A stretch of DNA of 63,956 nucleotides, the filler included, from Globobulimina sp. (Eukaryota), in assembly GCA_003354225.1 (NCBI GenBank). It is 19 parts of 19 records of this genome, joined end to end, with 100 filler letters (N's around TTAATTAATTAA, not from the genome) between each part and the next. Parts side by side here need not be neighbours in the genome. Positions count along the whole stretch, not along the records: positions 3,376 to 6,650 come from PIVH01003235.1; 18 more parts are not named here. One strand, given 5' to 3'. Shown here in pieces: positions 3,276 through 12,560 of this stretch. Below the pieces are notes generated by a model. It saw nothing but the letters and a program-made list of their open reading frames with translations. It made no database searches and had not been told where the DNA came from. Both the position numbers and the translations under genes were made by a program. How positions within the stretch are numbered: position 1 is the first letter of the stretch; each line of letters begins with the position of its first letter.

Positions 3276-3375
3276 NNNNNNNNNNNNNNNNNNNNNNNNN
3301 NNNNNNNNNNNNNNNNNNNTTAATTAATTAANNNNNNNNNNNNNNNNNNNNNNNNNNNNNNNNNNNNNNNNNNNN
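3276..3375. other. Artificial contig spacer (N44-TTAATTAATTAA-N44). The same spacer starts at 6651, 10025, 13399, 16773, 20146, 23519, 26892, 30264, 33635, 37005, 40375, 43745, 47115, 50484, 53853, 57221 and 60589.
   Basis: Identical 100-nt spacer with a six-frame stop core recurring about every 3.37 kb; contig lengths fall steadily from 3275 to 3268 bp. Confidence 0.99.
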
Positions 3376-4414
3376 TAACCGGTGCTAATACAGGTATTGG
3401 CAAAGAAGCAGCAAAAATATTATCGTTAACTGGAGCTACGGTGGTTATTGGAAGTCGTAGCAAAAAGCGAGGCCAATTGGCTAAAAATGATATTATTAAT
3501 ATGAACAAAAATATAACGTCAAACAAATTGAATATTGATGTGATGGAATTAGACTTATCATCAATATCAAACATTGATGTATTTTTAACAAATTTCAAAT
3601 CAAAATATAAATCGTTGGATGTATTGATATGTAACGCCGCTGTCAATCCATTACAAGATGGACTACAAACAAACGATGGCTTGGAAGCAGCATTTGGAAT
3701 TAACCACATTGGTCACATGTATTTAGTGTTGGAATTAAAAGATTTATTGACAATTAATAAGAATTCGAGAATAATAATGGTATGCAATGAGTACACATTA
3801 TATGATCAGCAGAAACGTTTCATTTTGTTGTTGTTTTTGTTGCTATATAGGTCTCAGCGGTGCCATACGAGGATGAAAGAGCAAACACAATATTTGATAT
3901 TAATAATTTAAATGGTTATAATCAATGGGACGCCTATTTTATGAGTAAAATGGAGAATATTATGTTTACAAAAGAATTTGCAAAGCGTTATCCGAGTGAG
4001 AATGCAGAAAATAATGGTTTGCAGATTGTATCATTACATCCAGGCGTTGGTGCTACGGATTTATTGCATGCCAGAGACAAACAGAAAGATGTTATAATAC
4101 GTAAAAATACTGTGATAGTTCGCATATTGAATGTATTATTCAAGTATTTTGGTGATACCATTGAACAGGTTTAGTTTTATAAATAATTAATAACTTAATA
4201 GTCTTAATATGAATATATATATATGAATAATATGCAGTTATCTTATACGCAAATATATTTGTCATTGACGGATGCAAAAAATTTAAAACATGGAGCACAT
4301 TTTCGAAATGATAAAGAACAAAAAGTGTTTGGAGGAGTGGTTGACAATGAGGTGTTGTGGAATCAATTGTGGAGCAAAAGTAAAAAAATAATCAACGACA
4401 TTAAAAAATCTTAG
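3376..4414 (+). CDS. Short-chain dehydrogenase/reductase (retinol dehydrogenase/WWOX-like), 5' partial, introns near 3780-3850 and 4169-4237
   Basis: TGANTGIG, LDLSS, DVLICNAA, INHIGH, YFMSK (YxxxK), LHPG. Confidence 0.9.
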
Positions 4415-4726
4415 CTAAAACTTGCATTTTTAAAAATGACGCTCGTCATCTTCTTTATTACTTGTAGTGGTTCACATTTCGTTCAATACAACATCAACAA
4501 CATATTGCTTATGATGATCTTTTATCATTAAATCCTTGCATTATGCGAATGACTTGGACTGAGAGGAAGAGACTAAGTATTTTACAGCCATGTATACAGA
4601 GCATAAATACAGAAAAGAAGTCACAACTCACAAGACATCAAACAGATTAAATTCGCACGCATAAGCCCATCAATTGCAATATACAAACTACACACAAATA
4701 CATATGATCTCGCAATTGATACACAG

Positions 4727-6650
4727 ACAGAGACTACGAAATTGTTAATGCGCTACTTGGCCATGACGGCGCCGTCTGCGTCGATGCAAAGCAGCGTCGT
4801 GGAGCAGCAGATCATTGCGGCTTCGCCTATATTGGAGGCGTACGGCAACGCAAAGACGGTGCTGAATAATAATAGCAGCCGCTTTGGCAAATTCACAAAG
4901 TTATTGTACGACGTCCCGGATAAGGCGCGCGAAGGACACATTTTGGGCAGCTATTTGGAGACGTACTTGTTGGAGAAATCGCGAGTGGTCTTCCAGTCGC
5001 ACAATGAGCGCAATTACCATATCCCTTATTTTCTGTATCACGGCATCGCCAAAGAGCAGCACGAAGCGTACGGCATCATTCACCCTAAAAAGTGGGCCTA
5101 TGCCAACCAAGGCGGCGAGGTGGAAGTGCCGGGAATTAACGATATTGAGCGCTACAAAGAGTTGGCAGAGTCGCTGAACATGATGCGAGTGGATGGCACG
5201 GTGCAGCGCAATTTGTGGTATATCAGTACGGGAATCTTCAATTTGGGCAACGTGGCCTTCAAACGCGAAGGCGATGGCTTTGCGTCCATTGACCCGAAAT
5301 CGAGGCCGTCGCTGGAAACCTTGGCCCGTTTATGGGCGATTGAGCCGAAAGCGATGAACGACCGCTTGACCACGGCGTCGATGAAGGTGATGAAAAAGTA
5401 CATTGTGAAGAAAGTGCCGTACGACGACGCGGCGACCAATCGGGACTCCATCGCCAAGGGCATTTATGAGAACATCTTCTTGTATCTCTGCGAGCGAATC
5501 AACGCAGAGTTGTACCAGACCGACGAGGAAAACATCCAATCCATACTATTCATTGGCATTTTGGACGTGTTTGGCTTCGAGAACTTTTGGATCAATTCTT
5601 TGGAGCAGTTTTGCATCAATTTCACCAACGAAAAGTTGCAGCAGTTCTTCAATTATCACATCATCCGCAGTGAGCAGGAGGAGTACATCAAAGAGTCGGT
5701 GTTCTGGAAACCTTTGACGGTGCCCGACAATGTGGAGTATATTAACTTTGTGGAGGGAAAGACTAAGGGCTTCTACACGTTGCTGGACAGTGCGTGCAAA
5801 GCGCCTAAGCCGACGTGCGAGGCTTTTATGCAAAATTTGTTCAAACAGCACGGCGACAATCCGTGTATAAAACACATAACTAAGCCGGGTTCGGGCAATG
5901 CGAGGGGCGGACCCGCGGGGAAGAAGAAGAAGGTTTGCTACTTCTTTTTAACTTTAATTTAATTAATAATTCCCGTGATAATAATGATAAATAACACTGT
6001 TTGTGTTTGTTGTTACAGGGCAAGGTTTGCTACGTTTTATGCCATTTAATAATAATAATAATTCCTTCAAACTGAATAAAATATGTTGATAACAATAAAA
6101 AAATCTTTGTGTTTGTGTTATAGGGCAAGGTTTGCTACGTTTACCGTTTAATAATAATAATATGTGAGAATAAAATATGTTGATAATAATAATAAAAAAT
6201 CTTGTGTTTGTGTAACAGGGCAAGGTTTGCTACTTTTTACCATTTGATAATAATAAAATTGCTTCAAAACTCCGTCTGAAATTAAATAATAAGCGTTTGT
6301 TTTTAATAATAAGTTGATATTTAATAAAATTGCTATTTAATAATAAGTGCTTCTAAAACTTGAAAATCAATAACAATTTGGATGAAAATTATATAAAATA
6401 TACAGAAATCGCGCAGTTCGGACCGCTACGAAGGCTTTCAAATTACGCATTTTGCAGATTTAGTGGCCTACGATGTGAGTAAATTCTTGATCAAGAATAT
6501 GGAGGCTGTGCACCCCGACACCGCCAAAATGATGAAAAAGTCCAAGACCCACTTGGTCAAAGAAATAGGTGGCAGCGGGCCCAAAGGGCGAAAGAAAAAG
6601 TCTGTGACCTCAGTATTTTGGGGCGGCATCCGAGTGTTAATGAAGAATTT
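4727..6650 (+). CDS. Myosin motor domain, partial. Exons: 4727-5932; micro-exons 6019-6024, 6124-6129 and 6219-6224; 6406-6650
   Basis: TETTK after the P-loop, LEAYGNAKT, switch I NNNSSRFGKF, YLLEKSRVV, switch II IGILDVFGFE, NSLEQFCINFTNEKLQQ, ITHFADLVAY. Confidence 0.96.
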
Positions 6651-6750
6651 NNNNNNNNNNNNNNNNNNNNNNNNNNNNNNNNNNNNNNNNNNNNTTAATT
6701 AATTAANNNNNNNNNNNNNNNNNNNNNNNNNNNNNNNNNNNNNNNNNNNN

Positions 6751-10124: not shown

Positions 10125-11615
10125 TTTTTTCACCAACACCAACAAGTCTTCGATAAAGGCGACATTGTACGAATATCGATTCACATCATCCATTCGCATC
10201 ACTTTATCCTTGACCACGGTCAATGCGTCGGCTTTATTTAACAGTGGCTCCCGATCATCATTCTCCTCTTCCGGATCAGACACAGTCCCATATGAATCAA
10301 ATTTGATTTTTACTGTTTTCGGTGCTCCCACTTCTATCATTTCAATATTCCCATTTCCTGCTTCATTGTCTTCACCGTCATCATTATCTAATTCATTCTC
10401 TGCAGTGTTGATTTCTGTATTTTGTTTTAATTCTTGTTCCTCTTTGTTATCATCACCTGCATTAAATGGGCTTTCTCGAATGGAATCCCGATGCAATGGG
10501 TTTTGCAATAATTTAGATTTTGATTTGGATTGACCGCGTTCCATGGAACCAATTGCATGCGAATCAAGCATTAAATCATCATACGGTCGATTGCAACGCA
10601 TATAAAACTTTTGCTCCGCCAATAATTTCTCTTGTGCCACTTGCAAACCTTAACAAAAGAAAAGTATCACATGCTGCCATGTTCACTCAAAGTAAAGTGT
10701 CTCACTCAAAAACATCATTTCAAACATGTCACACTAAATAAATGTGTACAGTACCTTCAAACTGATAACCTGTGATCAAAATGCGTATCAATGCAATCAA
10801 ACAAATTACAGTTAATATTGCTAAACCATTAAACAATATCGATTCCACCGGCGATCCCGTTATAAAAAATGTTCTATAAAACGTAAACAATGTTAAAAGA
10901 CACGTTATCGATATAAACCACGTTGTCGGTAATTCTATATATTATTTTCCGTAAAAAAACACATCAGTACACTGACAAACAGCATACCCTGTTCCCCAAA
11001 TAAAACCTGTCCTTGAACCGCTAAAAACGACCTAATCTCCAACCAGCCCAACGCATTTTGCCTCCGTATCATCGACAGAAACAAATCCCGACTGATCGCG
11101 CTGCCTTTACTCGGGATCTCCACCATGCTCTCATCCATACTGAGTCTGAACGCATCGCGCATCTTCTCCTTTTTGTGCAAGATCTGCGTCAAATCGCTCA
11201 TCCATCCCCGATAATTATCGAACTGTTTCTTGTATTGGATCTCCACACAATATATGATGCTCGCGATCAACACGAAATTCACGATCAAGGCTCCAATCTC
11301 CAACAAGTAATCTCCGTCTTTGCTGAAAAAGGTGCCAGAGCCGGAAGAGCCTTCTGAAGAATCGCCAAAAGTCAAGCGGGTCAAACCCGGCGTCAACGCA
11401 TACAATAAACCTAAGAACAGCACTATAAATGTCCGCAATTTGCTCAATTTCCATCGGTTGTTAGTCCGCGACGACTCAAAGGCGCGCACAAATTTGTACA
11501 CTGAGCTGCGATGAGAAAAATCCTCTCCGAAGAAGATGGTCAATGAGCGCAAGCGTGCAGGCGCGGGGATGGCTGGTCGTAGCTGCTGATCATAGGCAAT
11601 CCACACAGACAGCAA
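10125..11615 (-). CDS. Multi-exon hypothetical membrane protein, partial
   Basis: ORFs 10935-11615 and 10077-10646, with a short TM exon near 10755-10935 bounded by GT/AG. Confidence 0.55.
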
Positions 11616-11816
11616 TAACGAAGATTCCGCTTAAACCGGCCTTGAAAAAGCGGCCCCAATAAAATGTGCGCACCAAACGGAAGTTTTTCAATGATAAGAT
11701 CGGCGATGGAATGTGGTCTGGCGGCAACTCCTCGGTCTGCATGGCCGGGGACAATTTATTTGAATCAATTCAATGTGGTTTTGTTGTGTGACATGTGGTT
11801 TTTACATGAAACGTAC

Positions 11817-12560
11817 CTTAAAAAACTGTATTTTGTTGGAACCTTTGGAGATTTTACTATAAATATCATCATCTTCGATATCATCGAAATCATCGCCGCC
11901 ATCACCACATAGCGAGGGACAGCATATACTTTCTTGTGATTGTTGTTGTTGTTGTATTTGCGGTATGACGTCAGCATTAATATTGTGATTATGTCTGCCG
12001 CCACCAAAATGTTGAAAATATAGAGGCAAGACCATATCGAATAATTGTGTTAAATTCGTGGATGTAAAAGAGGACACTTCGATGTATTCGCAGTCCCATT
12101 TAGTCGCTTTTTGCTGTGCTTGGTCTTTGGTAATGACTCGCTCTGAGGATAAGTCGCTGTGAGTGCCTACTAAGATGGTTGGGATTGACTCTGTTTCTTT
12201 CACTCTGAGCACTTTATTGCGTAATAAATCGATGGTTTTAAAGCCATCCCGCGAGCAGATGCTATATGTAAAGAGGAATATTTGTGAATCGCGGATCCAT
12301 TGGTCTTGCATTGACCAAAATACTTCTTGGCCGGCGGTGTCTAATATCTCTACAAGAGCTGATTCGCCATTTACGGTCACATTCTTACTGTATGTGTCTT
12401 TTCATATTTATAATTTACATTTTATATTATATATTATACCTTCGATTGTTGGGTCGTAATCTGAGAGAAATGCGCCAGTGATAAATTTCATGACTAATGC
12501 CGATTTGCCTTGTCCGCCACCTCCGAGCATGCATGTTTTTATGGTAGGAACTGCTGCCAT
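11817..12560 (-). CDS. Ras-family small GTPase (intron near 12395-12440); C-terminus probably continues past a donor near 11816
   Basis: [47 protein letters not shown]. Confidence 0.92.

Follow-up and report, generated by a model that had tools for sequence, protein, structure and literature searches.

In a 63,956-base stretch of Globobulimina sp. DNA (assembly GCA_003354225.1; hereafter the window, i.e. the whole stretch analysed), a gene for a myosin motor is interrupted at positions 5933–6405 by 473 bases that look like one intron. Our results indicate with high probability that these bases are four GT–AG introns (86, 99, 89 and 181 nt) separated by three 6-nt exons, each coding for Gly-Lys, that all three of these micro-exons enter the mature message and that the array consists of a tandem-duplicated unit of ∼95 nt. 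Compared with a single-intron reading, loop 3 of the motor would gain six residues and three positive charges.

The array and the two myosin exons around it lie on the plus strand. The upstream exon (4727–5932; hereafter exon 1) has 402 codons, follows an acceptor AG at 4725–4726 and ends in ...GKKKK, the last four codons before the end at 5932 being AAG; it is supported by Pfam, by foraminiferan-type proteins of 80–85% identity and by spliced contigs. Then follow intron 1 (5933–6018; 86 nt, GTTTGCTAC...TTACAG, G+C content 0.24), micro-exon 1 (GGCAAG, 6019–6024), intron 2 (6025–6123; 99 nt, GTTTGCTAC...TTATAG, 0.22), micro-exon 2 (GGCAAG, 6124–6129), intron 3 (6130–6218; 89 nt, GTTTGCTAC...TAACAG, 0.22), micro-exon 3 (GGCAAG, 6219–6224) and intron 4 (6225–6405; 181 nt, GTTTGCTAC...ATACAG, 0.20), all of them read from the sequence. 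The next myosin exon (6406–6650), which starts with KSRSSDRYEGFQITHFA, carries a basic loop-2 stretch and is again supported by Pfam and spliced contigs, is cut at 6650 by the end of the genomic contig. The first-pass annotation, made from the sequence, had proposed four phase-0 introns with an identical start, as well as a GGCAAG at 6019, 6124 and 6219 between a YAG acceptor and the GTTTGCTAC donor, and both proposals hold to the base. The donor string GTTTGCTAC occurs four times on the plus strand of the window (5933, 6025, 6130 and 6225) and nowhere else on it, and its reverse complement is absent from the 63,956 bases. GGCAAG followed directly by GTTTGCTAC occurs three times in the window, at the three micro-exons, behind the acceptors ACAG, ATAG and ACAG, respectively.

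All four introns fall between codons, and every combination of their donors and acceptors preserves the reading frame. If retained, the introns would run into in-frame stops at codons 10, 17, 18 and 31, respectively. The G+C content of the introns is 0.20–0.24 versus 0.50 in the exons (0.70 at third codon positions), and GGC accounts for 22 of the 32 glycine codons of the myosin gene. The low-G+C, stop-containing introns and the GGC-rich glycine usage thus give added support for hexamers that are coding. Two introns of a neighbouring gene are 71 and 69 nt long; introns of 86–99 nt with a GTTTGC donor are therefore ordinary here, and one of 473 nt would be odd. Candidate branch sites (YTNAY, 12–55 nt upstream of the acceptor) are TTGAT at 34–35 nt in introns 2 and 3 and TTAAT at 52 nt in intron 1; no YTNAY was found in that range in intron 4, and the signal is too weak for use in all of the introns.

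Assembled contigs of sequencing runs bear on whether the hexamers are used. A run search listed seven sequencing runs (five with half or more of the sampled words, two studies), and four were aligned to the whole genomic contig. X1, X2 and X4 come from one sample, whereas X5 comes from the second study and bears an organism label different from that of X1–X4. Two contigs, X2 record 13 (1358 nt) and X4 record 17 (1817 nt), match exon 1 up to 5933 and then 6404–6650, with 0–4 letters differing from the window in the flanks and with intron 1 missing. Between 5933 and 6404 they hold 15 letters; adding the adjacent G (5933) and AG (6404–6405), which the aligner could assign to either side of the joint, gives precisely three hexamers. 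The hexamers, each framed in the genome as YAG/GGCAAG/GT, are thus real exons, as had been predicted, and are included together; these messages carry three hexamers where direct splicing of 5932 to 6406 would leave none. The word length of contig assembly, which we take to be 31 letters, is longer than the 18-nt hexamer repeat, and the count of three is therefore no assembly ambiguity. A single contig holds all three copies, which sets them apart from mutually exclusive tandem exons. Recursive splicing through a zero-length exon was also considered and is rejected, as six bases between AG and GT stay in the transcript. GT..AG joints are seen in the same runs in a dehydrogenase gene on the same genomic contig (3778 to 3850 in X2; 4165 to 4235 in X2 and X5). 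Because introns of this neighbouring gene are spliced in these runs, the contigs would derive from spliced RNA.

Unspliced contigs of the same runs bear on the genomic sequence itself. Those of X1 (5852–6074 and 6298–6520) and X5 (6122–6294) are identical to the window; intron 1 is retained in X1 record 7 and intron 3 in X5 record 24 (6122–6294). Since they come from two studies and show no differing letter, the genomic array is reproduced outside this contig. It is therefore hardly credible that the repeat is an artefact of a short-read-graph assembly, a way of failing that the first-pass annotation had itself named. Such an origin would suit a 3.3 kb contig of a highly fragmented assembly whose part upstream of 4719 may be mis-joined, but the units differ at about one fifth of their positions and by indels, which excludes collapsed or expanded identical copies; separately assembled contigs of the two studies match 5852–6074 and 6122–6294 exactly; and the transcripts require three hexamers.

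A further alternative is that the spliced contigs come from another gene copy or allele, one with an exon that includes the 18 nt, so that 5933–6405 would here be one intron and its hexamers inert relics. The assembly is fragmentary, foraminiferan-type myosins are many and exon 1 of the spliced contigs departs from the window in 2–4 places, all of which would suit this explanation. However, all three of the exon-1 differences examined (5167, 5557 and 5732) recur in X1, the source of unspliced contigs of this locus, and thus resemble variation within a single locus more than marks of another gene. Moreover, the insert consists precisely of the three hexamers found in the genome between an acceptor and a donor, and inert relics leave unexplained an invariant 17-nt core against a background of 51% (see below). 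No two joined hexamers occur in the DNA of the window, itself a small sample of the genome. We consider a second copy to be a very improbable source of these messages.

Several points nevertheless weigh against the reading of three jointly included micro-exons in a duplicated array: (i) the run type is not on record, and the RNA origin is deduced from the joints; (ii) the evidence consists of assembled contigs and not of reads, so that rare variants are dropped and proportions are not given; (iii) X2 and X4 represent one sample, which is also that of X1 and from which the assembly itself may derive; (iv) X5 alone is independent, and no X5 contig spans the whole joint; (v) the window samples, with ∼64 kb, a fragmented assembly in which another copy of the gene, its 18 nt placed within an exon, could lie elsewhere; (vi) which duplication came first and what the ancestor looked like are both deduced; and (vii) the genomic contig lacks the upstream myosin exon of the transcripts and may be mis-joined upstream of 4719, which leaves 5852–6520 untouched.

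The origin of the array by tandem duplication is well supported by comparison of its units. Tandem Repeats Finder reports an array at 5976–6268 (period 95, 2.9 copies, 79% matches, 13% indels, score 344), the only one of nine repeats in the window with a period >45. In pairwise local alignments, each set against 200 shuffles (shuffle maxima 27–34), units 2 and 3 score 107 and units 1 and 2 score 49 (shuffle maxima 28–34). Unit 2 also aligns to 6225–6312 with a score of 61 (maximum 27 in 200 shuffles), and the first ∼88 nt of intron 4 thus appear to be a degenerate fourth unit that has neither acceptor nor hexamer. A fifth unit in the second half of intron 4 (6313–6411) was sought and rejected, its scores (19–31) lying inside the shuffle range. 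Separately, a repeat with a 16-nt period (2.7 copies, 6302–6348) lies inside intron 4, right after the degenerate unit. The homologous exon-plus-intron units are adjacent, as in tandem exon duplication, and the closest likeness is between units 2 and 3, whose duplication would thus be the latest.

The units have diverged unevenly. Aligned three ways, the units agree in 65 of 111 columns, and the longest invariant run is 17 nt, consisting of the acceptor AG, the hexamer and nine bases of the donor; outside this run 51% of columns are invariant. A run of 17 nt was reached in 181 of 100,000 column shuffles. This supports, for a small sample, the earlier proposal that splice signals and hexamer were held while the interiors drifted. 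The copying of an intron together with its micro-exon, also proposed at first pass, is borne out by the period-95 array and by unit alignments above the shuffles. The accompanying idea of intron gain by tandem duplication holds in part: as the units are copies of one segment, duplication would have added three introns, but an existing intron was copied with its hexamer and none was made from exon sequence. The pattern expected of introns created from an exonic AGGT is not seen either, as the introns are AT-rich, alike among themselves and unlike exon 1.

These observations suggest a simple course of events. A unit of ∼95 nt (i.e. donor, AT-rich body, T/G-rich tract, acceptor and hexamer) would have been multiplied by tandem duplication within an older intron. 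The first hexamer could have arisen if a segment reaching from the final AAG of exon 1 to just past a cryptic intronic YAG-GGC was duplicated, which fits the sequence and would place a copy of AAG plus donor behind the cryptic acceptor. A unit copied thereafter already holds donor, body, acceptor and hexamer, so later copies need no new signals. One of them, the fourth, would have decayed, while constraint would have kept acceptor AG, hexamer and donor identical in the others and let the interiors drift. Each copy may be removed singly by intron definition, in the manner of short introns, which is probably why a 6-nt exon is tolerated three times in succession.

We then turn to the number of hexamers per message. 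The complete spliced forms (X2 and X4) have three only, and none of the contigs of the four runs has zero or one, although rare forms could escape contigs. In X5, two contigs end 11 letters past 5933 and one begins 13 letters before 6404, and their loose letters are hexamer repeats. Contig ends were simulated in a 31-mer graph for nine mixes of splice forms. The three-hexamer form, alone or with unspliced RNA, gave no such ends, and its mixes with a one-hexamer or a zero-hexamer form gave ends 6 or 0 nt past exon 1, unlike those of X5. Only mixes of three- and two-hexamer forms (with or without unspliced RNA) gave ends 12 nt past exon 1 and 15 nt before the next exon, which equal the X5 ends when the shared G and AG are counted. 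The contig ends of this very fragmented run are thus a hint that a two-hexamer form coexists with the three-hexamer form in X5. Inclusion of three would be the main form, with a two-hexamer form probably alongside it in one run. The two-hexamer signal could equally come from skipping of a micro-exon or from an allele one unit shorter: the ends fit the shorter message, no contig lacks an exon, and allele and splicing are indistinguishable in these data.

This result bears on two alternatives. The first-pass annotation had proposed a splice-tunable series of zero to three Gly-Lys units, i.e. cassette micro-exons included in any number under regulation, so that graded loop charge would tune actin affinity. 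Frame preservation by every donor–acceptor combination and the X5 contig ends would fit such cassettes, but the complete messages have three hexamers only, the ends at 0 or 6 nt simulated for mixes with the shorter forms are unseen in X5, and nothing in the data bears on regulation. The tunable series did not find support and is unlikely, the X5 hint being open to explanation by an allele. The second alternative is a minisatellite whose copy number varies among individuals or alleles, with the two-versus-three signal of X5 reflecting DNA variation by unequal crossing-over that adds or removes an intron plus Gly-Lys. We regard it as possible but rather improbable. The tandem ∼95-nt units with 79% matches, the score of 107 between units 2 and 3 versus 49 with unit 1 (suggesting a recent duplication), the different organism label of X5 and contig ends that fit a mix of two and three all agree with it. 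Against it, a two-unit array is found in no DNA contig, the unspliced X5 contig (6122–6294) is identical to units 2 and 3 of the window, and the signal consists of contig ends only. Beyond the preferred reading of four introns and three jointly included micro-exons, we tentatively raise the possibility that the array is a frame-safe length ruler of an actin-contact loop, in which crossing-over or skipping of a unit shifts loop 3 by two residues and one charge. If so, (i) the two- and three-hexamer forms of X5 would be a first sign of such natural variation, (ii) an intron minisatellite would act as a heritable or splice-level tuning knob of a motor protein and (iii) the locus would be a dated example of intron number rising by three within one gene.

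The identity of the gene is clear from its motor domain. Exon 1 matches Pfam Myosin_head (PF00063) with an E-value of 7.9e-113 and 378.4 bits over profile positions 99–472, and the exon from 6406 onward matches it with 35.1 bits over positions 477–528 (cut-off 33.3 bits for both), so that the array sits in the gap between profile positions 472 and 477. Exon 1 contains NNNSSRFGKF and LDVFGFENF, which we take to be switch I (NSSRFGK) and switch II (DxxGFE), the P-loop being the third nucleotide-binding motif. The closest proteins are EukProt, JGI, ENA and MERC entries with 79–85% identity (83–89% over part of the query in a second search). Among named proteins, those of Reticulomyxa filosa come closest (59% in one search and 65% in the other), and the gene is therefore of foraminiferan type. 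Neither protein search returned a protein of the same species (best 85%; 83–89% for partial matches), and hence none returned an independent protein record with (GK)3.

One structural account places loop 3 of myosin-V at residues 532–546, where it forms the Milligan contact to actin (PMC8735999), and another notes that the size of loop 3 differs among myosins and may be linked to how prominent it is within the interface (PMC5762158). Loop 3 is a surface loop that follows the helix-loop-helix motif and precedes the F-x-I-x-H-F/Y-A strand. When the basic segment of a relative is aligned to myosin Va, the insert falls between R542 and M543, inside loop 3. This alignment and the Pfam gap support a location of the array at myosin loop 3, in agreement with the initial assignment. 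A longer and more basic loop would strengthen the electrostatic hold on actin, and we infer that loop-3 charge may affect actin affinity here. For Chara myosin, one report describes surface loops that alter velocity and a one-residue difference in loop 3 whose swap was without effect (PMC8872768).

Comparison with relatives suggests that the loop has grown. The loop segment was defined as the residues between the G-N-A-R-G and (F/Y/W)-x-G-F motifs, a pattern that 29 of 240 proteins fit. In all 14 close relatives with a G-P start, the segment has 15–17 residues and a net charge of +6 to +9; in the other 15 it has 8–30 residues, with at least 21 in P0013 (21) and P0131 (30, probably an unspliced read-through) only. 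The segment of the window would have 15, 17, 19 or 21 residues with zero, one, two or three Gly-Lys units, and a charge of +6 to +9. With (GK)3 (21 residues) it exceeds that of every close relative by 4–6 residues. Judged from these proteins, this lineage seems to have added two or more of the three units. In an ENA contig of 79% identity (P0129), the open reading frame leaves the coding sequence directly after GGKKKK; this agrees with an intron in a relative at the corresponding position, and thus with growth of the array inside a pre-existing intron. A metagenome scan gave four loci of 49–75% identity: the two that were translated (L001 and L002) are both intronless through the loop and look transcript-like or like other paralogues, L003 ends before the loop and L004 has 49% identity. 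The loci that were read gave no genomic orthologue.

Other features of the relatives were seen in passing. Seven full-length ones (P0003, P0005, P0006, P0007, P0011, P0013 and P0070) end in a Cys-x-x-Met box (e.g. ...CQLM, ...CSLM, ...CTLM, ...CLIM, ...CAFM and ...CNLM), which looks like a prenylation signal and might mark a lipid-anchored myosin family. The myosin gene of the window is cut off before the tail, the part that bears this box in the relatives. In P0123, an ENA contig of 83% identity, the open reading frame leaves myosin after ...STEAF, where the gene of the window is uninterrupted; P0123 probably has an intron there that this gene does not have.

The array resembles several known systems. 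Constitutive plant micro-exons of ≤15 nt are frame-preserving and lie in conserved domains, with Myosin_head among the commonest; two adjacent rice micro-exons (5 and 12 nt) were validated by reverse transcription polymerase chain reaction, and annotation often misses plant micro-exons (PMC8831610). Both systems have tiny frame-preserving coding exons, also within the myosin head. By contrast, those of plants are old, conserved and unique in sequence, whereas the three 6-nt exons here are identical and form an apparently young array in a variable surface loop, an addition absent from the proteins of all 14 close relatives. Tandem exon duplication likewise copies an exon and the adjoining intron head to tail within a gene and usually leads to mutually exclusive splicing (PMC9741552). 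The known duplicates are of ordinary size and used one at a time, whereas here they have 6 nt, all are included and a repeat is added to the protein.

A few cases of intron gain by tandem genomic duplication have been proven (Hellsten et al. 2011, PMC3265369; the potato RNA-dependent RNA polymerase gene RdRp, PMC4974935). As proposed here, one duplication step yields extra working introns; in those cases the new intron arose from duplicated exon sequence, whereas here an existing intron would have been copied with both of its splice sites. The micro-exon genes of schistosomes hold strings of symmetric micro-exons of 3–81 bp (PMC10526429) and so share with this array a serial arrangement. However, they encode secreted proteins, consist almost wholly of micro-exons and have introns of up to 5 kb, in contrast to a local array with introns of ∼90 nt in a motor gene of housekeeping type. 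A literature search on splice inserts in myosin loop 3 returned none among the matches listed, and one that paired foraminifers with microexon or micro-exon found no report. Animal myosin II has alternatively spliced inserts in surface loops 1 and 2, which are regulated cassettes. There, too, small exons alter the length and charge of a surface loop, but the loop concerned here is loop 3. The combination of identical 6-nt exons in a young array, included jointly in an actin-contact loop of a protist myosin, was not found described.

The transcripts support that the spliceosome of a little-studied protist processes three consecutive 6-nt exons with introns of ∼90 nt, which makes the locus a strong natural test of intron-defined splicing. 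It also appears to be a young and still legible case in which tandem duplication took the intron count from one to four and lengthened the protein simultaneously; proven recent intron gains are few, according to one study (PMC4974935). There is a warning for annotation as well: if 5933–6405 is called as a single intron, the predicted protein stays in frame but is wrong, lacking six residues of an actin-binding loop. Should the number of units vary, the locus would offer a way to study how actin affinity is set by loop-3 charge, in a cell type well known for rapid pseudopodial transport.

The setting of the gene is that of a composite sequence. The window contains 18 pairs of 44-N runs (36 runs in all), the two runs of a pair flanking the twelve bases TTAATTAATTAA, and these linkers (44 N + TTAATTAATTAA + 44 N; e.g. 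3276–3375 and 6651–6750) split it into 19 pieces of ∼3.27 kb and slowly falling size. The window thus strings together small contigs from a fragmented assembly, with stop-codon linkers between them, and gene neighbourhood across linkers is therefore meaningless. The myosin array sits on the piece at 3376–6650 (3.3 kb), and the pieces on either side of it are unrelated.

The same piece carries a short-chain dehydrogenase gene on the plus strand (3376–4414), the first exon of which matches adh_short (E-value 3.8e-13); a Pfam search of its exon at 3851–4165 gave no match. Its two introns (3780–3850, 71 nt, donor GTATGC; 4169–4237, 69 nt, donor GTTTAG) correspond to the joints seen in X2 and X5. 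Before 4725, spliced contigs from three runs (X2, X4 and X5) carry letters foreign to the window. Read by eye, these loose ends give a P-loop (...CGESGAG) like that of the relatives, an exon that is absent from the genomic contig. An X1 contig parts from the window at 4719 and continues with letters that differ again. This leaves two explanations: an upstream myosin exon located past the dehydrogenase gene, which would then be nested in a long intron, or a mis-join of the contig near 4470–4718. No contig of the four runs covers 4476–4695, a gap that we take as proof of nothing. The G+C content of the myosin exons (within 4727–6650) is 0.50 versus ∼0.23–0.40 per kb in most of the window, and a second G+C-rich stretch lies at 11001–12000.

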